Shown here one piece after another: positions 1 to 35,519 of a DNA stretch of 64,000 bases. The notes beneath the pieces were generated by a model. It ran no database searches. It saw nothing but the letters and a program-made list of their open reading frames with translations, and was not told the DNA's origin. Within the stretch, counting starts at the first letter, position 1, and every line of letters begins with the position of its first letter. Origin of the DNA: Armatimonadota bacterium. GTDB lineage: Bacteria > Armatimonadota > Fervidibacteria > Fervidibacterales > Thermosaccharophagaceae. The position numbers were made by a program, and so were the translations under genes. The stretch spans positions 6,149-70,148 of the forward strand of contig JANXAS010000011.1 of assembly GCA_025062195.1 (NCBI GenBank), read 5' to 3'.

Positions 1-266
1 GTATGCAACCTTTGCGGGCTATCACGCGCAAATTTTGCGTGCGCCTCATCATCAGCTTTATTGGCACAGTGCAACTTAACTTTAGCGTGCTCGCTCAATT
101 TGGATAGAGTTGCGCATGTGGCATTGTTTTGCAGTAGCTGATGACGGTCAATTAAAAACAAACCGAAAGATGCGGGCAGATTGACAGCTGCGCTGCATTC
201 AACTGCGCAATTCACAGCATCAAGGACAATGCTGCACATTAATCTTGTATTCGGTGGTGAAGGTGT

Positions 267-947
267 GTGGCTAAGAGAATATGGCTTGCTTGGAGCAGCG
301 GAAAAGACTCGGCGCTCGCATTTTATACTCTTCGGCAAGGTGGAAGGTGGGACGGTTTTGAAGTTTGTGCTCTCATTTGCACCGTCACAGAAGATTATGG
401 GCGAGTCAGCATGCATGGTGTGCGCAGAGAATTGGTGCTCGCACAAGCTGAATCAATCGGAATGCCACTGATTGAAGTTCCCATACCGGCAAAATGCACG
501 AATGAGCAATATGAGGAAGCCATGCGCTTAGCACTTGAAAGAGCTATTAACGATGGTGTTGTTGGGGTGGCATTTGGTGACATTCATCTTGCGGATGTGC
601 GTGAATATCGTGAGCGGCAAATGGCTCAGCTTGGAATGCTGCCGATATTTCCGCTATGGGGCGAGGAGACCGGAGAAGTCGCTATAAAGTTTTTGTCGCT
701 CGGATTTAAAGCCATCGTCATATGTGTTGATTCGGAGCAGCTTAATCCTAACCTGTGCGGGCGTGAGTATGACGAATCGTTCTTGGGTGAGTTGCCAAGC
801 TCGGTTGATCCATGCGGTGAGAATGGCGAATTCCACACATTCGTTTACGACGGACCGATATTTGTAGAGCCGATTGAAGTTCGGCGTGGGGAAATAGTTA
901 TGCGAGATGGACGGTTTGCATTCTGCGATTTAACCATGAGCGGGTGA
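267..947 (+). CDS. PP-loop ATP pyrophosphatase of the Dph6/MJ0570 (diphthine-ammonia-ligase-like) family
   Basis: 226-aa ORF from GTG 267. N-terminal PP-loop variant AWSSGKDS and C-terminal CGENGEFHTFVYDGP block, both typical of this family. The TGA stop overlaps the next start (GTGA). Confidence 0.7.
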   Translation: MAKRIWLAWSSGKDSALAFYTLRQGGRWDGFEVCALICTVTEDYGRVSMHGVRRELVLAQAESIGMPLIEVPIPAKCTNEQYEEAMRLALERAINDGVVGVAFGDIHLADVREYRERQMAQLGMLPIFPLWGEETGEVAIKFLSLGFKAIVICVDSEQLNPNLCGREYDESFLGELPSSVDPCGENGEFHTFVYDGPIFVEPIEVRRGEIVMRDGRFAFCDLTMSG

Positions 948-1993
948 GAAAGATGAAAACCGATGGGCAAGTGGTGACTCTCAAGGAAGCAATGCATTAT
1001 GAGGTGCTCCCCGATGGTTCTATTAAATGCACCCTTGAGCCACGCCAGTGCATCATTCACGATGGTGAAAGAGGCTTCTGCGGTGTTAGACAGAACTTGA
1101 AGAGGAAGCTTTGGGCTTTGACATATTCAAAGGTTGCAGTTGTTGACATTGAAACACTTTACCGGCATCACTTTTATCATGTCCTTCCGGGCGCATACTT
1201 TCTCACTGTGGGCACTGCCGGATGCAACATGAACTGCCAATACTGTGAGACGGCTTCAATATCGCAGGCAACGCTTGAGGCTGTGGAGAGCGAATATGCT
1301 ACACCGCAGATGCTCCTTTGGATGGCACTTGAGCGCGGCGCTGTCGGAATATTGTTTGCGCACAATGAGCCAGTGGTGGATTACGAGTTCATGATTGACA
1401 CATTTAAGCTTGCAAAGGATTTTAAGCTGCGCACCGCATGCCATACTGCAGCGAAGATATTCGCAAAGCCATTGGCTGAGCTTTGTCGGCATTTGGATGC
1501 CATAAACATTGACTTGAAAGCCTTTGACGAAGACGTTTACGAAAGGCTTTGTCAAGGCAGTCTCAAGACAACAAAGGAAGCAATCGCTACCATTTCAAAG
1601 CTCGCCAATGTGTTCATGGAAGTGACATATCTGCTTGTGCCGGGGTTCAACGATGACTTAGAGCAAATTAAGCGGATGTGCGAATGGCTGCTTAAGACCG
1701 CCGGAGATGAAGTGCCATTGCACTTTATCAGATTCTTCCCAGCACATAAGATGAAGGACGCCGACCCGACACCAATTGAGCTCATCTACGAGCGCCGTGA
1801 GCTCGCTATGAATATGGGTTTTAAGTATGTCTACGGTGGCAATCTGTTTGGCGACAAATCCGAGTTCACATACTGTGCCAAATGCAAAGCCGTAGTCATT
1901 GAGCGAAGCGAAGATGGCATCCCGACTTTGCGCATGCGCTCTGGAAGATGTGAGGCATGCGGCAATGCCATCCCCGGAATATGGAAGCTGTGA
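944..1993 (+). CDS. AmmeMemoRadiSam-type / PflA-like (COG1180) radical SAM enzyme
   Basis: 349-aa ORF. CNMNCQYC radical-SAM CxxxCxxC motif, Cys-containing N-terminal segment, and a C-terminal CAKC...CEACG zinc ribbon ending PGIW as in this family. GTG 944 overlaps the upstream stop by 4 nt (alternative ATG 953). Confidence 0.75.
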   Translation: MRKMKTDGQVVTLKEAMHYEVLPDGSIKCTLEPRQCIIHDGERGFCGVRQNLKRKLWALTYSKVAVVDIETLYRHHFYHVLPGAYFLTVGTAGCNMNCQYCETASISQATLEAVESEYATPQMLLWMALERGAVGILFAHNEPVVDYEFMIDTFKLAKDFKLRTACHTAAKIFAKPLAELCRHLDAINIDLKAFDEDVYERLCQGSLKTTKEAIATISKLANVFMEVTYLLVPGFNDDLEQIKRMCEWLLKTAGDEVPLHFIRFFPAHKMKDADPTPIELIYERRELAMNMGFKYVYGGNLFGDKSEFTYCAKCKAVVIERSEDGIPTLRMRSGRCEACGNAIPGIWKL

Positions 1994-2043
1994 GGGCTCA
2001 TATTTCAAGGCGACATCTGAACTCTTAGCTATGTAGCGCCGTG

Positions 2044-2116
2044 GCTTGTCCACTGCGGTCGCTCAGCTTCCGCCACCCAAAATGATGGCGCCGCATGATG
2101 GTTTTTGTCGCCTCGC
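2044..2116 (+). repeat. Dispersed repeat family Rep-2, copy a
   Basis: GCTTGTCCAC-TGCGGTCG left end matches the reverse complement of copy c (40726-40804). The TTTTGTCGCCTCGC right end is identical to copy b. Internal hairpin CGCCA/TGGCG. Lies 51 nt after the radical SAM stop. Confidence 0.6.
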
Positions 2117-2423
2117 AATTCAAATGCCGGTATGGAAGGCATGTTTTGAAAGTTTTCAAATGTGCCTGCTAAGGCTATTTGCTGCAAAGCTTACCGGGTG
2201 CTTGTTTAGGTTAAAGGCTCTTCAATGAGCCAAAAAGGCGGGCAGAGATTGAGAGGAATCTTTGAGGCATTGTGAGGATGGGGTTCTCGCCGAACAAAAT
2301 TCGAGCAAGCTGGCGATGGGAAGTAGACAGATAGGTAGCATTGTAGCCCACTTGCAAGTCCGCCATCTTCAAAACTCTTCTCCAACAACATTTTGAGCAA
2401 ATAGCACCTGTCAAATTGTAGCC

Positions 2424-3608
2424 TCAGCGTCCATGACAAACCGCACAAGTCTCCTCGCGCTTGTGACACTTGAAGCAAACTGACTTTGGATCAAAGCTCG
2501 CCACATCCTTGTGCTTGAGCGCAAACCCCTCAGGGTGTGGCAACGGAACACCGTGACAAGCATCGCAAGCATTCTTCCCGTGACAGCGCTCACAAATCTT
2601 TTGCTCTTCCTTTTTCACCTTAGCATGCGCTCTTCGGTAATCTTTTGGGTGCGGCATCGGCAAGCCATGACATGCATCACACCAAGATTGTGCATGACAG
2701 CGCATGCAAAGACTTGCGTTAATCTTTGCCTCGTTGTGCTTGCGCTCATAGCCCTTTGGATGGGGCATCCTGATGCCATGACATGAATCGCAGAAGGAAC
2801 TTGAATGGCACATAAGGCAATTCTGCCCAGCAAGGAAGAGCTTGCCGTGGCGCTTCATGAAATCGGGCTTGATGTGGGATGATGGTTTTCTGACGATGTG
2901 ACATGAATCACAAAACGAGCGCTCATGGCATTGCAAGCATTGAGTCTCTTTTTTGCGGGCGTGTTCACCATGCTTTGCGGCAAAGCCCTTCACATGGCTG
3001 GATGGTTTGCGCGGCTTGTGGCACAGGTCGCAAAATGCTTCACTATGGCAATCCAGGCACTGCTGTCTATCTTTTGTTTCCTTTGGATGGCGCTCAAGCC
3101 AATCTTGCCCGTGAGTATTCGGCAATGCTGTCTGCGGGCGAGCATGACATAACGAGCATTTCTTTGGCGCACGCTTATCATCGTGGCATTCCAAGCACAC
3201 ATCCATTGGCACAGCGCCATGCTTCGGATATGGCTTGCCCGGCTCTCGCTGCTTGATGTCTCTATGACAATCGCTGCAATGGTCACCCCTCTCAATATGC
3301 TTCATGTGCGAGAATGTAATTCGGTAGGCGCTTTCTCCGAGCGTGATGACGCTGTGGCATTCAAAGCATTCCAAATTAGCGATGTGGCGTAGGCGTTCGC
3401 TTAGAGAGTGTGAGGCTGAAATTCGCTTTGCATTGGTGTAGCGCGCCTCAGCCTCGTAGAGGCGCTTAACATCTCGCTTCACATAGTGCATATGAATCAT
3501 TAGCAGCGCCGATAACAAACTCACTATGACAATCGGAGAAAACATCAGCGCGAGTTTGAAGGACATTATTATAGCCCGCCTCAGCTTCACCGCTTTAACC
3601 CCCGACAC
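2424..3608 (-). CDS. Membrane-anchored 16-haem c-type cytochrome
   Basis: 394-aa ORF (GTG 3608; alternative Met 3566). One N-terminal TM helix. 16 CxxCH motifs account for all 32 Cys. Tandem doubled-CxxCH modules. Confidence 0.85.
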   Translation of the reverse strand: MSGVKAVKLRRAIIMSFKLALMFSPIVIVSLLSALLMIHMHYVKRDVKRLYEAEARYTNAKRISASHSLSERLRHIANLECFECHSVITLGESAYRITFSHMKHIERGDHCSDCHRDIKQREPGKPYPKHGAVPMDVCLECHDDKRAPKKCSLCHARPQTALPNTHGQDWLERHPKETKDRQQCLDCHSEAFCDLCHKPRKPSSHVKGFAAKHGEHARKKETQCLQCHERSFCDSCHIVRKPSSHIKPDFMKRHGKLFLAGQNCLMCHSSSFCDSCHGIRMPHPKGYERKHNEAKINASLCMRCHAQSWCDACHGLPMPHPKDYRRAHAKVKKEEQKICERCHGKNACDACHGVPLPHPEGFALKHKDVASFDPKSVCFKCHKREETCAVCHGR

Positions 3609-3678
3609 AGCTCAGATATGCACATGGGCAGTTTTTGACCAAGCAGTTTGCAAGCCAATTTCAACTGCCTCACCGCCT

Positions 3679-5301
3679 CTAACTGTTAGTGCTGCGGTGC
3701 TCATATTCAAGTGCGTGTCTTTCCTTTAACTCCCTCAGGCTAATCTTACCGGTTAGCCAAACCGTGCTCATCGGAAATACATCGGGACGAAGATGCGCAA
3801 AGTATATGTGGAAGCAAAGGAGGGCGAATGTTGCAAGCACAGCTTCATGGCTGTGTAACGCATGAGCGATTTCAACGAGCTGTGGCGATGTGCGTTCGGC
3901 GACAAGAGGCGCTTGCCAAAGCATTATGCCCGTTACGCCCATCATCAATATGCCCCAGCCTGCCGCCCAATAAAGGAACTTCTCAACGAAGTTGTATCGC
4001 CCCATCTTGGGTGGTTCACGGCGTATTCGTAGCAGGAAAAGTATGGAGTGATAGAAGTCAACGAAGTCCTTAAAGGTCGGAAGCATCTCTGTGCGCCTAT
4101 TGCCGAGAGCAAACTGGACGAGAAGATAGAGCAGGTGATAAACAACTGCAATGAGCATAACTATTCCTGCAACTCTATGTATGATGGCAGCGTTATCAAC
4201 CCCGCCGAGAAGCTCAAGAAGGAACAGCGAGATTGGTGACCAAAAGCCCTTTAGTGGCAAGCCAGTTAGCATTAGTGCCATAACGCTGCCCATGAAAAGA
4301 AAGTGTTGAAGGATTTGGTGGACATTCCAACGCTGCACATACCCTTTTAGCTCTTCGCCCTCCTTATGAATAGCTCTGGCGCACCAGAGCGCCCCCATCA
4401 CAACTGCGTCAAGCAACGTGTATGCGAACATTGAAATGAGCACGATGATGACGAACAGCTCAAAGAGCAAGTTGACCCAGTAGACTGCTGGACGCTCTGA
4501 GGGCGAAGCCAGCTTGTGCGTGAATGTGAGGGCAAATTTTTCGCCGCCGCCTTCGTGGCAGTTTGCGCACAACAAAGAGCGCTTTGAAGGGTGCATCATA
4601 GAGGCAGGGTCACTTGGCGAAAGTATGCTGTGGTAGCCATGACATGTGACGCAGTTGGCGCTGCGCTTGCTCCCAAGGTGCAGCTTCTTGCCGTGAAAGC
4701 TGCCCAAGTAAGTTGTGACAGTGTGTGTGTTAACTTTGTGCCGTAGCATCATTTCTTTGTTGGCGTGACACTTGGCGCATACCCATATGACATTGCTCGG
4801 ATATATTAACGAGCGTGGATCTTCATTGCTGAGTATATAATGGCTGCCATGACAATCGGTGCACATCGGTGGGTCATCACTGCCACTTAGTATGCTCATT
4901 GCATGCTCGCTTTTGCTGTATAGCTTGAAATGCTCCTTGTGGCATTCAATGCATGCAGCCAGTGCCGGCTGAGAGAGCCTATAAGCGCGCCTAACAAAAG
5001 GCTTAATCTCATTCGGTATATCTCTACGGTAGCCGCTCAAGGGGGAGTTCATTGTAATCTGGTGCGATTTTTTCATGGGACGCATGTTCGTGTGGCAATC
5101 GGTGCATTTGAATTTCCCATGCACTGAGGATGCAAACCTATCCGGGTTAACATAGAGGCTGCGTATCAATCCGTTTGGCAACCTTATGTGTAGCTTTTCG
5201 TTTGCGTGGCACGAAATGCAATGTTCCTGAGATGAGGCATATTCGTGCTGCAACCAAAGCAGAAAAACGATTATGCATGCTGCTATAGAGCGCCGAATCA
5301 T
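3679..5301 (-). CDS. Fusion protein: heptahaem cytochrome c domain plus integral-membrane cytochrome b (FdnI/PhsC/HydC-like); CbcL-like architecture
   Basis: 540 aa. Signal-peptide-like N-terminus. 7 CxxCH motifs in the first ~260 aa. The C-terminal ~270 aa has about 5 TM helices and conserved His blocks (RWNVHQILQH, HRVAG, HALHSHE). Confidence 0.8.
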   Translation of the reverse strand: MIRRSIAACIIVFLLWLQHEYASSQEHCISCHANEKLHIRLPNGLIRSLYVNPDRFASSVHGKFKCTDCHTNMRPMKKSHQITMNSPLSGYRRDIPNEIKPFVRRAYRLSQPALAACIECHKEHFKLYSKSEHAMSILSGSDDPPMCTDCHGSHYILSNEDPRSLIYPSNVIWVCAKCHANKEMMLRHKVNTHTVTTYLGSFHGKKLHLGSKRSANCVTCHGYHSILSPSDPASMMHPSKRSLLCANCHEGGGEKFALTFTHKLASPSERPAVYWVNLLFELFVIIVLISMFAYTLLDAVVMGALWCARAIHKEGEELKGYVQRWNVHQILQHFLFMGSVMALMLTGLPLKGFWSPISLFLLELLGGVDNAAIIHRVAGIVMLIAVVYHLLYLLVQFALGNRRTEMLPTFKDFVDFYHSILFLLRIRREPPKMGRYNFVEKFLYWAAGWGILMMGVTGIMLWQAPLVAERTSPQLVEIAHALHSHEAVLATFALLCFHIYFAHLRPDVFPMSTVWLTGKISLRELKERHALEYEHRSTNS

Positions 5302-5307
5302 CCGACC

Positions 5308-6660
5308 TCACTCGCCCACCTCTATGTGCTCGTTGCGATCGCCACTCAAGTTGCTCATAGCGCTGAGAAGCTCAACGCACGCCTCAATCGCTTTTATCTT
5401 GCCCTCATCGGCAGCTGTTGCTCTCAGGCGTTCAATCAGGGGGTGAAGAAGGCGCTTCATCAGGCGCTTTGTGAGCATGTCAACCACTTTGATTTCATCA
5501 TCGCCGCGTGGCGAAAGCCTGCCCATAAACTCGCTCAGAGTTTTCAAGCGCACTTGCTCTGCAGCTTTGAACATATTCACCACAATCGGCTCAACTCGCT
5601 TTGCGAGCCACCAACGCCAAAAGGCTTCAACCTCTCTCTGGACAATCGCCTCAGCCGCTTGCGCCTCATGTTGGCGCAGCTTGCGATACTCCTCGGCTAT
5701 ATCGGTTAGGTCATCAATATTTAAAAGCTTCAGTCCGTTCAATTGAGCAGCACTCGGTTCAACATCCCTTGGCACTGCAAGGTCAATGACCAACATCTGC
5801 TTTGAGTTTTGCGTGCGCCTTGAAAGTGCTTCGGCAAGCATGTTCTGGCTCAACACGAAATTCGGCGAACCGGTGCAAGAGACAATTATGTCGGCACCCG
5901 GCAGCCAACTTGGAAGTTCATCCAGTGATATGGCTACAGCGCCGGATTGACCGGCTAAATCCAAAGCCCGTTCAATTGTCCTGTTTGCGACCACGACTTT
6001 CCCTATGCCGTTCTTTTTGAACAGGCGCAGCGTGAGCAAGCCCATTTCTCCCACACCGATGAGCAGCAATGTTGCGCCGCCAAAATTGCCATATATACGC
6101 TTTGCCACATGAACTGCAGCATGTGGTATTGATGTTGCCCCCTCAGAGATGCGCGTCTCGGTGCGCACACGCTTACCAACATTAATGGCTCGCATGAACA
6201 GCCGCGATAGTATGGAGCCGCAGCATTTCAAGCGCATTGCCAGTTCATACGCATCCTTGATTTGCCTGAGTATTTGCGGTTCACCGATGACCATTGAATC
6301 CAACCCAGCTGCCACACGGAACAGGTGGGCGCAAGCACCCTTATCATCGGCTACATAGAGACCGGATATCAGCCTTTCCCTGGGCATGCGATGTTGGCAG
6401 CATAAGAATTCAATTAGCGCCATAGCGTCTGTTCCGTTAAGGACGGCATATATCTCCACACGGTTGCATGTTGATAGGAACACAACCTCATTAACGCCAT
6501 CAATTGAGCGCAGCGAACGAAGCGCATAGGGCACATCAACCTTGCACAGCGAGAGCCGTTCACGGACATCAATATTCATCGTGCGGTAATTGCCGCCAAC
6601 GAGCACCAGCTTAGGCGCTTCGCTATTTCGGTGAGCTTGCAATTGCCTCTCTCTTTCCAT
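5308..6660 (-). CDS. hemA: Glutamyl-tRNA reductase
   Basis: LVLVGGNYRT...RE N-terminus, CNRVEIY catalytic-Cys block and LLIGVGEMG NADPH Rossmann motif. The ORF is open to 6789. ATG 6660 or 6732 avoids overlap with ccmF, so the start is uncertain. Confidence 0.9.
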   Translation of the reverse strand: MERERQLQAHRNSEAPKLVLVGGNYRTMNIDVRERLSLCKVDVPYALRSLRSIDGVNEVVFLSTCNRVEIYAVLNGTDAMALIEFLCCQHRMPRERLISGLYVADDKGACAHLFRVAAGLDSMVIGEPQILRQIKDAYELAMRLKCCGSILSRLFMRAINVGKRVRTETRISEGATSIPHAAVHVAKRIYGNFGGATLLLIGVGEMGLLTLRLFKKNGIGKVVVANRTIERALDLAGQSGAVAISLDELPSWLPGADIIVSCTGSPNFVLSQNMLAEALSRRTQNSKQMLVIDLAVPRDVEPSAAQLNGLKLLNIDDLTDIAEEYRKLRQHEAQAAEAIVQREVEAFWRWWLAKRVEPIVVNMFKAAEQVRLKTLSEFMGRLSPRGDDEIKVVDMLTKRLMKRLLHPLIERLRATAADEGKIKAIEACVELLSAMSNLSGDRNEHIEVGE

Positions 6661-6757
6661 GTAACTTTCACCCTTAAATCCACCTGGGACAGATGAGCAC
6701 ACATTCACTTTATCTACCGAGCCAGTAGACATTTTAGCACAGGTATCACTGCCAAAC

Positions 6758-8971
6758 TTAAAAAGCGTTGCTATCGCTGCGACTCGCATAGCGCTTTGAG
6801 AAGACGAGTGCCATCAACCCACCGATCAGAATGAGCACGCTGCCAAAACGGAGCAAGTTCATGAATGGCTTAATGCTCAGCTCAACGATAGCATGCAACG
6901 ACTTTGCAGAGGTTTTCGGGCGCTCAACCGATAGCCGTATTAATCCCTCATCAGCATTCATTGCGAGTATGGAAAATGTGGCGCTTTCATCCGGCAGGCT
7001 CTCGTCAACCCCTTCACCGGATGCCGTTAATCCGGGTGAAACTAAGTGCCGCACACCGGTCGTCATCTGGTGCACCTCAAGTATTGCTCTTGCAATGAAC
7101 TCATCTGTCCGACCGAAAACATGTTCGCCAACCTCAAATTTGATGAACCGTATGTTCATGTCAAAAGCTCGTTTCTCCTCGCCCTTACGCAGCACCAAAG
7201 TGATGCGTTCGCTCTCACTTAAAAGCTCAATTGGCGATGCATAGATATCGCTCAACAAAAGCATCTTTATGCTCGGCTGGCGCACAACGCCATATGGGCT
7301 GTCATAAACCCTCATCTGCATGCTGCGCTTAGTCCCATCGCCTTCAATTACCAATGTAATGTGAGCATCCTTTTGAACCATGCGTGGGCTTTTGGGCTCA
7401 ATCTTACATGCGACTTTGTATCCAAGGGCTGTCTTGCTCTGACCAATTGCGAGCCTCAGTGTTTGAGAGCGTTCAAAAGAGGCTGAAAGTGATATTCCGA
7501 GCATGAGCGCAGCCACGCCGATATGCGCGATGCAGCTTCCGAGGCGATGCTGAGAACGGCTAATAGCATTCCGAAGAAGATTGAAGTTAATCAAGAGTGC
7601 TGCGACGGATAACAGCGTGGCTGCAATGTGGTATGGGTTTCGCATGCCGAAGAGGAATGCAGTGCCGGCTGCTATACACCCGATGAGGAACGATGCCATG
7701 ATTAAGCGCACACCATATCGTGTTTGGATACCTAAGCTAAGAGCGATGAGAAGCGCCAACGCAAATGGAGCCAAAGCACGGTTGTAAAAACTCGGCGATG
7801 CGCTCATGCTCACTCCAAATGGAGCTGTGAAGAGCGGCAGCGATGTCCCAAGCTCAATAATGCATGCCATTAGGATAAGAAGCACTGTTGCGCACCATGA
7901 GGCGAAGTTGACCGAATGAACCGATGTCCATGCCGGCTGGGCTTTAAGGTTGTGCCAGTAGCGAGCTGACACCGCTATTCCAACGACACTGTAAGCTATT
8001 AGCGATGCAAGGAGGGTTATATTGACCGAGCCGTGAGCTTCCCCGAAGACATGCACAGAGACCTCACGCAATATGCCGCTCCTCGTGATGAATGTCGCAT
8101 AGATGACGCTAACATAGGCAAACATGCAAAGCAGCGAGCAAGTTCTACAAACGGTCCCGCTACGCCTCTGAATCGCAAGGGTGTGTAAAAGTGCTGTCAG
8201 CAGCAGCCATGGCACAAGGGATGCATTCTCAACCGGGTCCCAACCCCAATAGCCACCCCACCCGAGAACTTCGTAGCTCCAATAAGCGCCGATGATTATG
8301 CCTGCTCCCAGCACAAGCCACGCAAGCAACACCCACTGGCGCACTATCTTAATCACTCGCTCATTGTTCGGCTCTCTAAGAAGCATGGGTGAAAGAGCAT
8401 ATGGTGCGGAGGTGAGTGCATATCCGCACAACATCAATGGTGGATGAACCACCATCCAAAAGTTACGCAGCAACGGGTTAAGCCCATGACCATCATCTGG
8501 CTTATGCGGGAGCACTTCAAAAGGGCTTTTGCAAGCCAACGCCACAAGCGCAAAGAGCTGCGCAAACGCAAACAGCGAAATGACGCTGAGAGCGCCATTG
8601 CCTAATGAATTGGTCGTCCTCGCAAGAGCGATGCCGATAAGCAATCCGAACCACGCCCAGAGGAGCATTGAACCCTCTTGACCAGCCCAAAAGGCGCTTA
8701 TACGATACCACAACGGCAACTCATTTGAGGTATGCGCAGCCACATAGGCTACATCGTATCTTCGTGCGCAGAGCAAAAACACCAAGATAGCCGATGAAAG
8801 GGTCACGCAAAAAAACGCAAAAGCGATGCTCAAGTGCGCTAACCGGCGTGCGTTAGCTGCCTTGAGATGCTGAAGCATGCTTGCAGCTACGGCAATAGAC
8901 AGCGAAACTGCAGACACCCAAATTAACGCCTCCCCAAGCACCGGAATAGCGATGGAAGCGTGCACATTCAA
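6758..8971 (-). CDS. ccmF: Haem lyase, CcmF/NrfE family (System I cytochrome c maturation)
   Basis: 737-aa polytopic membrane ORF. WWD-type motif WGGYWGWDPVENASLVPWL matches CcmF rather than CcsA. Long periplasmic C-terminal region ending in a TM helix. Confidence 0.8.
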   Translation of the reverse strand: MNVHASIAIPVLGEALIWVSAVSLSIAVAASMLQHLKAANARRLAHLSIAFAFFCVTLSSAILVFLLCARRYDVAYVAAHTSNELPLWYRISAFWAGQEGSMLLWAWFGLLIGIALARTTNSLGNGALSVISLFAFAQLFALVALACKSPFEVLPHKPDDGHGLNPLLRNFWMVVHPPLMLCGYALTSAPYALSPMLLREPNNERVIKIVRQWVLLAWLVLGAGIIIGAYWSYEVLGWGGYWGWDPVENASLVPWLLLTALLHTLAIQRRSGTVCRTCSLLCMFAYVSVIYATFITRSGILREVSVHVFGEAHGSVNITLLASLIAYSVVGIAVSARYWHNLKAQPAWTSVHSVNFASWCATVLLILMACIIELGTSLPLFTAPFGVSMSASPSFYNRALAPFALALLIALSLGIQTRYGVRLIMASFLIGCIAAGTAFLFGMRNPYHIAATLLSVAALLINFNLLRNAISRSQHRLGSCIAHIGVAALMLGISLSASFERSQTLRLAIGQSKTALGYKVACKIEPKSPRMVQKDAHITLVIEGDGTKRSMQMRVYDSPYGVVRQPSIKMLLLSDIYASPIELLSESERITLVLRKGEEKRAFDMNIRFIKFEVGEHVFGRTDEFIARAILEVHQMTTGVRHLVSPGLTASGEGVDESLPDESATFSILAMNADEGLIRLSVERPKTSAKSLHAIVELSIKPFMNLLRFGSVLILIGGLMALVFSKRYASRSDSNAF

Positions 8972-9103
8972 TCACCCTTTAAACCGTGGTTTGCAGCTGG
9001 ATACGAAAAAAACCACCAAGGGACTTACAGCGCACCAACAGACACTTCGTTTGGCTCGCCAATAGCTTCGCCAACGAATACTATGGCGCATTTGAGCTAT
9101 GCC

Positions 9104-10423
9104 TTATGACATGCGAAAATATGGGCGGTGTTGTGGTGCAAGGTGGCGCTCAACATATTCACCCCATGGCTTCCTATAAGTGCGGCAAAGGTGTTGATTG
9201 GCTTCCTCGTCCCCGATTACCAACTCTTTCTCTGCATCCCATCGTATGACCCTGCCAACCTTGAATGCTATATTCACGAGATGTAAGGCATTGGTTGAAA
9301 GGTGCCCCCATTCAATCGGCGCAACAGTTTGCTCACGGCTTTTTACACAATCAAGGAAGTTGCGCACATGGGGCGGGTGCTGCGGAGAGCCGCCGCGTTT
9401 CATTGGTTCCCCTCTTCCGGGCTCCGGTATCACCTCAAAACCTTCTCGAGTCAACACGAGCGTCCCATTTGTGCCATAGAAGGCTATGCCGTAGCCTTTT
9501 CCTTCAATTGGGCGCGCATTTGTATGATAGACGGAAGCTTGCACATAGAAATCGCCATAGTCAAGGAAGCCATCTTGAGTGTCCGGCGTCTCCCTATTGT
9601 CCTGAAGAGCGTATTTGCCACCAACTGACATGGCTGTCTTTGGAGCAGTCACGCCGAGTATCCAGTGGACTGTGTCAATGTGGTGTATTGCCCATGCAAG
9701 CATGAATCCACCCGAGTAATCCCAAAAGAACCAGTAGCCCGGCGCATTGCACCTATTGCGGTTGAACTTCCGGTATGGAGCAGGTCCAAGCCACATATCC
9801 CAATCAACGCCTGCTGGCGGATTTTCATCCGGAGGGCTGCCTATACCGAATGGCGTTTCGTTCCACGCGTTCCAGAAGCGCACCCTTACAATTTTACCGA
9901 TGACACCCTTTCGTATCAAATCCCTTGCTTCGGCATAGTGAGCACCGCTAAGCTGCTGTGTGCCATGCTGCGTGACTCTCTTAAATCTCTTTGCAGCATT
10001 AACTGCAGCTCTGCCCTCGGCTATGTTGTGGCTGAGCGGCTTTTCAACATAGACATCCTTTCCAGCTTCACACGCTGCTATAGTTTGGATGCAATGCCAA
10101 TGGTCTGGTGTAGCTATGAATACGGCGTCAATATCCTTTCGGTCAAGCAGCTGCCTGAAGTCCCTGTATGGTGTAGCCTTCCCGTCGGTCAGCTTGACAG
10201 CTGCTGCGAGCCTGTCGTCCTTCACATCACAAACTGCTGCTACAGCAACATCTTTATTTGCCATCGCCATACTCATGAGACCCTGCCCCATACCACCAAC
10301 ACCTATGAAGCCGAGGGTTATTTTTTCGTTAGCACCAAATGGTGAAGCGGAGCGAAAAGTTAAGAAAAGAGCGCCGGCTCCAACAAATTGCCGTCTTGAG
10401 AGCTTTGATATTTTGCCCCCCAT
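9104..10423 (-). CDS. Gfo/Idh/MocA-family oxidoreductase with twin-arginine signal
   Basis: 439 aa. SRRQFVGAGALFL Tat-like leader, LGFIGVGGMGQG Rossmann motif and VYVEKP motif. Confidence 0.85.
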   Translation of the reverse strand: MGGKISKLSRRQFVGAGALFLTFRSASPFGANEKITLGFIGVGGMGQGLMSMAMANKDVAVAAVCDVKDDRLAAAVKLTDGKATPYRDFRQLLDRKDIDAVFIATPDHWHCIQTIAACEAGKDVYVEKPLSHNIAEGRAAVNAAKRFKRVTQHGTQQLSGAHYAEARDLIRKGVIGKIVRVRFWNAWNETPFGIGSPPDENPPAGVDWDMWLGPAPYRKFNRNRCNAPGYWFFWDYSGGFMLAWAIHHIDTVHWILGVTAPKTAMSVGGKYALQDNRETPDTQDGFLDYGDFYVQASVYHTNARPIEGKGYGIAFYGTNGTLVLTREGFEVIPEPGRGEPMKRGGSPQHPPHVRNFLDCVKSREQTVAPIEWGHLSTNALHLVNIAFKVGRVIRWDAEKELVIGDEEANQHLCRTYRKPWGEYVERHLAPQHRPYFRMS

Positions 10424-32832: not shown

Positions 32833-34107
32833 ATGCAGATGTGTCCCGAGTGCAGCGCTGATAACTTATCAGGGGCAGTCAATTGCTCAAGGTGCGGTGC
32901 ACAGCTTAAGGGTCTGCTTGGCTCGGGAACGCTGCTAAATAACCGCTATCGTGTGATTAAGGTTCTCGGATGCGGTGGCATGGGTGCGGTATATCTCGCT
33001 GAGGACTTAGCTTTATACGGGCGCAAGGTCGCCATCAAGGAAAACTTTGACACCTCGCAGGAAGGCAGGAAGCAATTTGAGATTGAAGCGAGGATTCTGG
33101 CAACACTATCACACCCCAACTTGCCCAAGGTGTTTGATTTCTTCACAGCGGGCGGAAAGCAATATGTTGCTATGGATTACATTGCCGGTGAAGATTTGCT
33201 CAACCATGTGGAGCAAAATGGACCACAAGGGCTTGAAGAGGCATTGAAATGGTTCTGGCAGGTGTGCGATGCTGTTGAGTATCTTCACCGTCAGTCACCG
33301 CCTGTAATACACCGAGATATCAAGCCGGGCAACATCAAGATACAGCCAGATGGCAGGGCTGTCCTTGTTGACTTTGGCATAGCTAAGTTCTACCGCCCGG
33401 GACAGCAAACTACTTCGGGTGCACAGGCAGTCACTCCCGGTTTCTCACCCATTGAGCAATATGGCAAGGGCATCACAGACCAACGCTCCGATGTTTACTC
33501 ACTCGCAGCAACGCTTTATTTTGCGTTAACTGGTGTGACTCCGCCAGAAGCAGTTGAGAGGTTAACGCACAACAGGCGACTCATTTCCATACGCAGCATC
33601 AATCCGGATGTTACAGAGGCAGTTGAGCGCGTGATTGAGAAAGCCCTCAAGTTGCACCCGAGTGAGCGCTACACAAGCGTGCGCGAATTTAGCGAAGCAC
33701 TTCGTATGGCGATAGCACAACCGGCGCAAAGCGCTTATCGGTGGGGCAGCTATCCACACAGTGGTCATAGGATGCCAACGAGCCAACGGGGCGCACAGAG
33801 AAGAGGTGGATGGCAAACACCACAACATCCAATTCCATATCCAACACAGTCTGCAGATCCATCCGGGTGCCTATTTCAACTCTTTGAAGTGCTCTTCTGG
33901 CTCATCATTGCGTGGAGCTTCGGATGCTGCGTAACCGCTTTCATTATCTACCTGCTTACCGCTCTGGGGTTGGTGTGGAGTTCTGGGACATTCATTGTGA
34001 CCGGAAATCCATTGCCGCTGCTATTCTTTGCCCTATGGGTCTTGATACTGTTGCGAATGACACGCATGATGAATGCGGCACGCAGAAGGCAAAGGAAGAG
34101 ACCTTAG
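32833..34107 (+). CDS. Ser/Thr protein kinase with N-terminal double zinc ribbon and C-terminal TM anchor
   Basis: 424 aa. CPECS...CSRCG zinc ribbon. Hanks motifs GCGGMGAVY, VAIK, HRDIKPGN, DFG and SPIEQ. Pro/Gln-rich linker followed by about 3 TM helices. SD GGAAGGTGA. Confidence 0.85.
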   Translation: MQMCPECSADNLSGAVNCSRCGAQLKGLLGSGTLLNNRYRVIKVLGCGGMGAVYLAEDLALYGRKVAIKENFDTSQEGRKQFEIEARILATLSHPNLPKVFDFFTAGGKQYVAMDYIAGEDLLNHVEQNGPQGLEEALKWFWQVCDAVEYLHRQSPPVIHRDIKPGNIKIQPDGRAVLVDFGIAKFYRPGQQTTSGAQAVTPGFSPIEQYGKGITDQRSDVYSLAATLYFALTGVTPPEAVERLTHNRRLISIRSINPDVTEAVERVIEKALKLHPSERYTSVREFSEALRMAIAQPAQSAYRWGSYPHSGHRMPTSQRGAQRRGGWQTPQHPIPYPTQSADPSGCLFQLFEVLFWLIIAWSFGCCVTAFIIYLLTALGLVWSSGTFIVTGNPLPLLFFALWVLILLRMTRMMNAARRRQRKRP

Positions 34108-34166
34108 GGGCAAACTCATCAGGCGGCGAGATTTGGTCACAGTTTGTTTTCGGGGGTGTATCTGGC

Positions 34167-35519
34167 TTGGGCTCAATCAAACTATCCCACAAGTTGAGCT
34201 ACAGCGTTGTTCCGTCAGGTGGAAGCACGCGACTGATTTACTTGCTCTTGAGGATTGATGCGACTGATGCCTCTTCGGTGCAGGCGCCGATGGCGCTCGT
34301 GGCGGTCATTGACAAGAGCGAGTCAATGATGCTCCCTATGGTCACAGAGGAGCAGTTGGAGGAACTGCGCCGGCGCGGCATCGTGAGGAGCACCGAGAGG
34401 GATGGCGTGCAAGTTTGGGAATTCCGCGGCTTTATGCTTCCGCCGGAATTGCGCGATGCTCCTCGCCCATTTGATTTCGTCAAACGCTCCCTGCGCTCCG
34501 CCGTTGAGCATCTTCAAGACTATGATGAATTTGCACTCATTGCCTTTGCTGCGGAGGCACAGGTTGTCCTGCCGATGCGTTCTGGGAAAATGCGCCACGA
34601 GATGATCAAAGCGCTTGATAGTGTTGAGAGGTTGCAGCTCGGTGAGGAGACGAAAATGTCAAAGGCGCTTGAAATGGCGCACGAGCAACTTGCGCTGAGG
34701 TTGGGTGAGCCAAAGTTGCTCCGAACCATCGTCATCAGCGATGGATATGCCCTTGATGAGAGCCAGTGCATTGATGCAGGTAGGCGTATGGCAGATGATG
34801 GGATCAGGATAAGCACGATGGGTGTTGGGGTGAATTTTAATGAGGAGTTAATGGTCAAGCTTGCAGACATATCCGGTGGCGAAGCGTTTTTTGTGCCAGA
34901 CCCCTCACATATACCCGATGTGCTTAATAGCGAACTTTCTCATTCAAGGCTGATTGCGCTCAGGCAGGCTAATTTGAAGCTGCGTTTCGCTAAAGGTGTT
35001 GAGATACGCAAGGCATACAAGATGCGTCCGGCAATTGCGCCGGTTGAGCGAATTTATGCCAGCGGTGGTCAAGAGATTGAACTTCACATTGGTGACCTAC
35101 AACTCGGCATTAGTGAGTTCCTGCTTGAATTGCTTGTGCCACCAAGGCGTGACGGGGTTTACCGAATTGTTCAAGTTTGGCTCAGCGGCACCATAGATGG
35201 CTGGGAGAGCAATATTGCAAATGCGGATGTGGTGCTGCGATACCAGAGTGGAGTTGCGCCCACCCAACCGGATGGCGAAGTGATGCGTGTTGCTTCCTTA
35301 ATCAGTGCAACGGAGTTGCAGACAAGGGCTTTGCATGATTTGAGGGTTGGGGACACAGTTTCAGCTACGCTTAAACTTAATGCTGCAAAGACGCGCCTAT
35401 TGAGCGCCGGTGCAAACACAAAACACATTGATGAATTGCTCTCCGAGATTGAGAGATATGGGAAGGCATCACCCCATGCCACAAAGAGAATGCGATATGA
35501 GACGCGCCGCCTATCATAA
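34167..35519 (+). CDS. Cytoplasmic von Willebrand factor A (vWA) domain protein with ~230-aa C-terminal beta-rich region
   Basis: The ORF is open from 33912, but that part overlaps the kinase by 196 nt. In-frame TTG 34167 sits 8 nt after GGGGGTG. MIDAS motif DKSES...VISDG. No signal peptide. Confidence 0.75.
   Translation: MGSIKLSHKLSYSVVPSGGSTRLIYLLLRIDATDASSVQAPMALVAVIDKSESMMLPMVTEEQLEELRRRGIVRSTERDGVQVWEFRGFMLPPELRDAPRPFDFVKRSLRSAVEHLQDYDEFALIAFAAEAQVVLPMRSGKMRHEMIKALDSVERLQLGEETKMSKALEMAHEQLALRLGEPKLLRTIVISDGYALDESQCIDAGRRMADDGIRISTMGVGVNFNEELMVKLADISGGEAFFVPDPSHIPDVLNSELSHSRLIALRQANLKLRFAKGVEIRKAYKMRPAIAPVERIYASGGQEIELHIGDLQLGISEFLLELLVPPRRDGVYRIVQVWLSGTIDGWESNIANADVVLRYQSGVAPTQPDGEVMRVASLISATELQTRALHDLRVGDTVSATLKLNAAKTRLLSAGANTKHIDELLSEIERYGKASPHATKRMRYETRRLS

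Follow-up and report, generated by a model that had tools for sequence, protein, structure and literature searches.

A PP-loop ATPase gene and a divergent radical SAM gene are paired in Fervidibacteria and have other neighbours elsewhere

We analysed two adjacent genes, one for a PP-loop ATPase and one for a divergent radical S-adenosylmethionine (SAM) enzyme, that lie near the start of a 64,000-nucleotide (nt) stretch of an Armatimonadota genome of the class Fervidibacteria (assembly GCA_025062195.1, contig JANXAS010000011.1, positions 6,149-70,148 of the forward strand; hereafter, the window). An earlier reading of these letters (the original prediction) had proposed both open reading frames (ORFs) and a convergent downstream neighbour, and all three are present: the pair is tightly packed on the + strand (267-947 and 944/953-1993; Table 1) and the next gene, which encodes a multihaem cytochrome (2424-3608), runs towards it on the opposite strand. 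Identical proteins are found in the Armatimonadota metagenome-assembled genome (MAG) GCA_026418135.1, and close relatives carry the labels Candidatus Fervidibacterota or Candidatus (Ca.) Thermosaccharophagus yellowstonensis. The family names of both proteins are already given in the NCBI annotation, as 'diphthine--ammonia ligase' for the ATPase and 'AmmeMemoRadiSam system radical SAM enzyme' for its neighbour. The pairing is not a recurrent system: we found it in Fervidibacterial genomes and in none of the loci sampled outside that class.

The original prediction had the ATPase gene ending inside the start codon of the radical SAM gene. Bases 944-947 do read GTGA and the spacing is very tight, but such an overlap needs GTG-944 as the start and ATG-953 is more likely to be used. 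GTG-944 was rejected as the likelier start because ATG-953 has the better Shine-Dalgarno sequence (GGTGA at 943-947, with a spacing of 5 nt) and its product of 346 amino acids (aa) is on record in public annotations, whereas the 349-aa GTG product is not. Among the five orthologous loci compared (loci are numbered with the prefix L), the GG-TGA at the end of the first gene is always kept and the downstream start varies between two extremes: 1 nt inside the stop in L003 and L004 (TGATG), and 6 nt past it in L002 and L013 (TTG), where the GTG and the called start are in different frames. What is conserved at the junction is a ribosome-binding site inside the stop of the upstream gene, and not the GTGA overlap. 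Since the Shine-Dalgarno sequence of the second gene overlaps the stop of the first, the co-translation that had been proposed is plausible as translational coupling; such tight junctions are nevertheless common among operons of bacteria and deserve no particular weight.

Table 1. Features of the gene pair, in window coordinates (A1 to A3 are sequence alignments).
Feature	Position	Strand	Remarks
Shine-Dalgarno-like GGTGGTGA	253..260	+	6 nt 5' of the GTG of the PP-loop gene; putative function
PP-loop ATP pyrophosphatase gene, PF01902, assigned to the DUF71-B12 subgroup	267..947	+	226 aa, GTG start
PP-loop nucleotide-binding motif S-S-G-K-D-S, residues 10-15	294..311	+	alignment A1; PF0828 alignment
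E-N-G-E-F-H motif, residues 185-190	819..836	+	DUF71-B12 signature, invariant in A1
GGTGA: last bases and TGA stop of the PP-loop gene, Shine-Dalgarno of the radical SAM gene	943..947	+	
Radical SAM gene, TIGR04337-type, Cys-to-Glu subclade	953..1993	+	346 aa (ATG-953); 349 aa if GTG-944
N-terminal motif C26-x2-E29-x3-C33-x9-C43	1028..1081	+	alignments A2, A3
Radical SAM cluster motif C91-x3-C95-x2-C98 (GCNMNCQYC)	1223..1246	+	A2; PF04055
C-terminal CxxC...CxxC (C308, C311, C333, C336)	1874..1960	+	A2

The ATPase had been placed in the Dph6/MJ0570 family. Its membership of the PF01902 superfamily holds (125.4 bits against Diphthami_syn_2, cut-off 23.2), but it scores below the cut-off of the Dph6 equivalog model TIGR03679 (83.6 bits, cut-off 197.3). 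With Dph6 (EC 6.3.1.14) it shares the fold family and the PP-loop, which reads W-S-S-G-K-D-S at residues 9-15 (family consensus SGGKDS) and aligns to that of PF0828; no solved structure matches it better than the Dph6 proteins PF0828 (PDB 3rjz, 65 bits) and PH1257 (2d13, 63 bits). It differs from Dph6 in the active site. In the account of de Crecy-Lagard et al. (2012, PMC3541065), the Dph6 motif is EGGE/D-x-E188, whereas ENGE(F/Y)H is the signature of a bacterial subgroup named DUF71-B12; a role in pseudo-B12 or cobinamide salvage was predicted for this subgroup because its genes cluster with btuCDF and cbiB. The window ATPase carries ENGEFH in place of the Dph6 motif, where PF0828 and PH1257 read GEGGEFETF, and has a His for the catalytic-site E188. 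ENGEFH is invariant in alignment A1 (27 family sequences, the window ATPase included), as are S10, G12, K13 and D14 of the PP-loop. Because the ATPase keeps every conserved family column (all 51 invariant columns of A1 and all 18 that are at least 90% conserved), its sequence gives no sign of neofunctionalisation. It is a normal member of the DUF71-B12 branch of PF01902, which is widespread in bacteria and archaea, and not a Dph6 orthologue. The NCBI name 'diphthine--ammonia ligase' is very probably an over-annotation, since neither diphthamide nor the other dph genes occur in bacteria (PMC3541065). The family is large, with more than 8,000 relatives in public data at E <= 1e-10, of which the best 120 are all at least 53% identical to the window protein. 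TIGR00290 was not among the NCBIfam matches at E<=0.01, in a release where the presence of that model is uncertain; homologues at 53-61% identity carry the JGI label 'TIGR00290 family'.

The radical SAM enzyme matches TIGR04337 (AmmeMemoSam_rS) at 293.3 bits, above the cut-off of 220, over protein residues 18-348 and model positions 3-334 of 349, and PF04055 at 53.9 bits. It shares with the TIGR04337 family the C-x3-C-x2-C motif (C91, C95 and C98, invariant in A2), the GIW(K/R) terminus and the C-terminal CxxC...CxxC, in which C308 and C333 are invariant in A2 and C311 and C336 nearly so; this last motif is probably a zinc-ribbon-like or auxiliary metal site. It departs from the family at the N-terminus. 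As the original prediction had noticed, the motif there is C26-TL-E29-PRQ-C33, followed by C43, and not the typical C-x2-C-x3-C, so that a Glu stands for the middle Cys. Among the 120 closest homologues, 109 have C-x-L-C-P-x-x-C...G-x-C and nine have C-x-L-E-P/T-R-x-C, and those nine make up exactly one clade of the neighbour-joining tree of these 120 sequences; after a profile search with the clade, Glu was found at this position in 22 of 188 sampled family members. The clade also has D(I/V)E(T/M)LY(R/H)HH for DPIEKKP. In the window protein the altered motifs, all near-universal in the family, are DPIEKKP (to DIETLYRHH), FCQNW (to YCETA) and HSxG (to HTAA). Close relatives are few: just five proteins exceed 70% identity to it, and the next is at 45%. 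More than half of the sampled family (96/166 canonical and 15/22 Cys-to-Glu members, scored by a crude regular expression) carry a twin-arginine-like RRxF motif in their N-terminal extension, whereas the window protein has no such leader; if RRxF really is a twin-arginine translocation (Tat) export signal, it would be odd for a SAM-dependent enzyme.

Many database names call proteins of this kind 'pyruvate formate lyase activating enzyme', and the window protein could accordingly be the activase of a glycyl-radical enzyme. Its AlphaFold2 model (predicted local distance difference test score, pLDDT, 94.3) has PflA (PDB 3cb8) as best solved structural match, with a template-modelling (TM) score of 0.79 over PflA, and PflA is also its second-best match among the hidden Markov models (HMMs). 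The likeness concerns the radical SAM core, at 17-18% identity: the score against the PflA model TIGR02493 is 65.3 bits against a cut-off of 231.75, other activase models lie far below their cut-offs, and the model predicts Cys-bearing extensions added onto the PflA-like core (about 70 extra residues at the N-terminus and about 45 at the C-terminus) that PflA lacks. No PFL-like (PF02901) or Gly_radical (PF01228) gene was found in the window. One Cys-to-Glu relative does have a PFL-like glycyl-radical enzyme gene (PF02901 and PF01228; L175, 12891-15260) 3.7 kb downstream, with DHDPS and MR_MLE genes in between; this enzyme may be what that family member really acts on, or may lie there by coincidence. 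For the window protein we hold an activase function to be very improbable. As PflA has a protein for its substrate, the window enzyme might likewise act on a macromolecule.

The two genes stand side by side in eight sampled loci, L001-L007 and L013, all from Fervidibacterota or Ca. Thermosaccharophagus genomes of this hot-spring lineage, with identities to the window proteins of 70-100% for the ATPase and 74-100% for the radical SAM enzyme. Gene order over about 20 kb around the pair is identical in these loci, and runs secDF, ribD/E/BA, an MFS transporter, a 3-keto-disaccharide hydrolase, the pair, two cytochromes, hemA, ccmF, a GFO/IDH/MocA oxidoreductase and an HD protein. Because all these flanking genes keep their order too, the adjacency of the pair is not independent evidence of a link. 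Beyond the class the pairing was not found from either side. For the ATPase we took one genome per species, which gave 80 loci whose orthologues are 47-70% identical and come from numerous bacterial phyla as well as from some archaea. The sole locus among them with the pair was the Fervidibacterial L013; no TIGR04337-type gene lay nearby in any of the other 79 species (47-56% identity), of whose loci 70 had at least 1.2 kb of downstream sequence and 49 at least 5 kb on both sides. For the radical SAM enzyme, PF01902 was found in none of 80 metagenomic loci (34-40% identity; 62 with at least 800 nt upstream) and in none of the six other Cys-to-Glu contexts (L011, L012, L173/174, L175/176, L177/178 and L179/180). 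Conservation of the pairing in related genomes, which the original prediction had named as a check, was thus seen within the class Fervidibacteria and not outside it.

Elsewhere the Cys-to-Glu enzymes recur, in several contexts, with tandem paralogous radical SAM genes and DUF362. They form a coherent TIGR04337 subclade with its own recurring neighbours, and this subclade with its neighbourhoods is the one feature that we did not find described. Near the non-Fervidibacterial Cys-to-Glu genes we observed a second and at times a third TIGR04337-like paralogue, scoring 407-489 bits against our model of the family (L012 5643-11708; L173 6951-10338; L179 5342-11955; L175 5338-9155; L177 5718-9137), and in three of these loci large Reg_prop-like proteins are encoded just upstream; together these genes look like a separate conserved cluster.

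The AmmeMemoRadiSam system is a set of proteins that is defined by the co-occurrence of the radical SAM enzyme with AMMECR1 (PF01871) and Memo (PF01875). Literature on what the system does yielded incidental mentions only; Burroughs et al. reportedly proposed, in J Biol Chem in 2019, roles of Memo, AMMECR1 and the radical SAM enzyme in the modification of nucleotide bases or isoprenoids, without experiments. The original prediction had pointed out that neither partner gene lies downstream of the pair, and this is so for the whole window: no AMMECR1 or Memo gene appeared among the Pfam matches of its long ORFs, nor among six-frame ORFs searched with phmmer and with jackhmmer profiles, which were seeded from the Pfam-verified Memo-AMMECR1 fusion of an Omnitrophota locus (where the fusion adjoins a radical SAM homologue 43% identical to ours). 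The sequence to the left, which might have held the two genes and made this the ordinary adjacent triad, has neither among the called genes of the 8.8 kb that precede position 1 on the matching contig L001 (about 73 kb in total).

How much this absence means depends on how often the partners are adjacent at all. In the canonical TIGR04337 loci (L093-L172), Memo or AMMECR1 was present in the fetched flanks of 19 of 80, and of seven of the 26 that were well flanked (at least 3 kb on both sides), so that having these genes alongside is not the norm even for canonical members. The 'system' is dispersed more often than clustered, and with only 7/26 canonical loci having them nearby, the missing neighbours are weak evidence of anything unusual. 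In the Cys-to-Glu clade, Memo or AMMECR1 was found in none of seven contexts, the window included, which against a 27% background is suggestive but not significant (0.73^7 ~ 0.11).

The same counts bear on the idea that the radical SAM enzyme is an ordinary member of the AmmeMemoRadiSam system, that its genome carries the AMMECR1 and Memo partners at other sites, and that the PP-loop gene is an unrelated neighbour. A full-length TIGR04337 match above the curated cut-off and the scarcity of adjacent partners in canonical loci agree with it. They must be set against a clade that alters the N-terminal and core motifs best conserved in the family (the Cys-to-Glu exchange, DIETLYRHH and YCETA) and that has neither partner gene at any of its loci or in the 64 kb and 8.8 kb scanned here. 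We regard this as a possibility, though a doubtful one.

A more ambitious proposal is that both enzymes serve one Fervidibacterial pathway, in which the PP-loop enzyme would adenylate a carboxylate and the radical SAM enzyme would act on the same substrate (a small molecule, a corrinoid or a peptide), as a new modification or salvage route that replaces AMMECR1 and Memo. The tight operon, with its Shine-Dalgarno-in-stop junction kept in all sampled Fervidibacterial genomes, and a radical SAM clade never seen beside AMMECR1 or Memo would fit such a route. There are also precedents: pathways that join a PP-loop ATPase with a radical SAM-type enzyme are known in QueC/QueE (preQ0), whose genes often share one operon, and in Dph2/Dph6 (diphthamide). 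To the window pair these are a formal analogy only, as the families differ: QueC belongs to PF06508, whereas the window ATPase belongs to PF01902; Dph2 is not a PF04055 enzyme; and the QueE model gives the window radical SAM enzyme 18.9 bits against a cut-off of 260. Against a single pathway stand the restriction of the pairing to one syntenic lineage, an ATPase that is an unmodified member of its family with orthologues that work without such a radical SAM enzyme, other Cys-to-Glu members that work without a PF01902 protein, and the lack of significance of the AMMECR1/Memo count. We consider it unlikely that the two act in one pathway of this kind, and a genuine new joint pathway in Fervidibacteria is likewise rather unlikely. 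In a more specific form, a Cys-to-Glu enzyme that lost AMMECR1 and Memo would have been recruited to a DUF71-B12 enzyme in an undescribed hyperthermophilic ATP- and SAM-dependent route that remodels a corrinoid or modifies a protein or peptide, with Glu29 giving an unusual carboxylate ligand, or leaving a site open, at an auxiliary metal centre; this we judge improbable. The shared modification pathway that had been read from the pairing is possible but unsupported, given its confinement to one syntenic class.

The genomic context of the ATPase orthologues points to corrinoids. FecCD and/or Peripla_BP_2 genes lie beside the ATPase gene in 18 of the 80 species, from at least five phyla, usually alongside genes for ABC ATPases and TonB-dependent receptors. 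All 11 of the transporter-linked loci tested have a cobalamin riboswitch upstream on the same strand; they cover Acidobacteriota, Gemmatimonadota, Actinomycetota, Dormibacterota and Ignavibacteriales. Of 22 loci without transporter neighbours, one (L071) has such a riboswitch directly before the ATPase gene, so that 12 of the 33 loci tested have one, mostly in company with BtuB/BtuFCD-like transporters. Riboswitch control in at least five phyla and the ENGEFH motif jointly lend independent strength to the DUF71-B12 prediction of 2012. No neighbour common to all ATPase orthologues was found, and the top neighbour clusters were rejected as antisense shadow ORFs of the ATPase gene itself.

Two of the orthologue loci deserve description in their own right. 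In L071, a Vicinamibacterales chromosome, the cobalamin riboswitch (5656-5859, 110.7 bits) has no transporter gene between it and the ATPase gene, and two group II intron D1-D4 matches (8699-9680) lie about 2-3 kb downstream. In L016 (620-6705), from an Anaerolineales MAG, two molybdenum cofactor (Moco)/tungsten riboswitches in tandem and a moaA-like radical SAM gene precede the ATPase orthologue, and the cofactor context there is not that of B12.

Taken together, the pair is probably an ordinary two-gene operon peculiar to the class Fervidibacteria, made of enzymes that have different partners elsewhere. Their adjacency most plausibly reflects an operon arrangement of this one lineage and should not be taken as a sign that a shared pathway is conserved. 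Several points weigh against this reading or limit it. The Shine-Dalgarno-in-stop junction (-1 to +6 nt) across all sampled Fervidibacteria looks like that of a functional operon, so that a lineage-specific functional link may exist. The Cys-to-Glu sample is small (six contexts). To our knowledge, neither family has an experimentally established function. The corrinoid assignment of the Fervidibacterial ATPase would moreover be borrowed from its orthologues, because its own locus lacks riboswitch, btu and cob genes. Whereas the DUF71-B12 orthologues at 47-56% identity are found in BtuB/BtuFCD-like clusters behind cobalamin riboswitches, neither is found near the ATPase gene in the window or in its relatives, and the gene shares its operon with a radical SAM gene instead; the 64-kb window yielded no btu or cob gene and no other visible B12 context. 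Riboswitch and RNA searches with Rfam before the pair gave nothing at the gathering score in the window, L001-L003 or L013, and at a relaxed E<=1 there was nothing in the upstream region of L001 and only chance microRNA (miRNA)-model matches in L003. About two thirds of the tested orthologue loci likewise lack a B12 context, and the paper on Fervidibacter sacchari makes no mention of B12 or radical SAM.

The chemistry of each enzyme may be sketched from that of its family. With ATP bound at its SGKDS loop, the product of the first gene would convert a carboxylate or amide into an activated acyl-adenylate and set free AMP and pyrophosphate; the genomic context of its orthologues suggests that the substrate is most likely a corrinoid under salvage or remodelling. 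The product of the second gene would reductively cleave SAM at the [4Fe-4S] cluster held by C-x3-C-x2-C, and the 5'-deoxyadenosyl radical so formed would abstract a hydrogen from a substrate that, by likeness to PflA, may be a protein or peptide; at an auxiliary metal site, Glu29 may take the place of a Cys ligand. We infer that the two genes are co-transcribed, and they are probably translationally coupled. The distribution data argue that the two enzymes need not act on the same molecule, and their functions would be independent.

In base composition (49% GC) both genes resemble the window as a whole; a recent horizontal gain of the pair as a unit was rejected, as its GC and third-codon-position GC (GC3) match those of the window. 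The left part of L001 holds secD, ribD, ribE and ribBA as called genes, followed on the opposite strand by the MFS transporter, the 3-keto-disaccharide hydrolase and a 115-aa ORF without a family. The intergenic region 5' of the pair (window 1-239, - strand; L001 7361-8809) measures 1.4 kb in this genome, against 160-514 nt in relatives, and this ORF is the only one in it. It is not called in relatives, has no family match and may be spurious or a lineage-specific insertion. In L003, the intergenic region 5' of the pair contains a hairpin of about 70 nt (4960-5033), where sub-threshold miRNA-model matches on both strands reflect a palindromic stem-loop. Promoter and terminator scans of window positions 1-2600 gave counts at or below the shuffled expectation and were uninformative.

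The cytochrome gene 3' of the pair opens a haem-related block on the - strand that converges on it (2424-8971) and comprises the 394-aa multihaem cytochrome, a 540-aa fusion of a multihaem cytochrome with a Ni_hydr_CYTB membrane domain, hemA (glutamyl-tRNA reductase) and ccmF; in L002 and L004, both relatives, the gene call that corresponds to the 540-aa protein is shorter and covers CYTB only. Further along, the + strand carries a Ser/Thr protein kinase gene (32833-34107), whose product has a zinc ribbon at the N-terminus and a membrane segment at the C-terminus. This gene runs into the 5' part of the VWA-domain gene that follows (33912-35519, as called from the longest ORF), the true start of which probably lies further downstream. 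Over the whole window, Rfam returned no family at the gathering score, tRNA included.

The ATPase and radical SAM families are both large, widespread and functionally unsolved, and true partners would have given a way into both. An adjacency seen in one lineage should not, however, serve to transfer function between them. For the radical SAM family, the Cys-to-Glu subclade has its own neighbours and no AMMECR1 or Memo gene nearby, and for this reason the annotation of its members as 'AmmeMemoRadiSam' enzymes may mislead.

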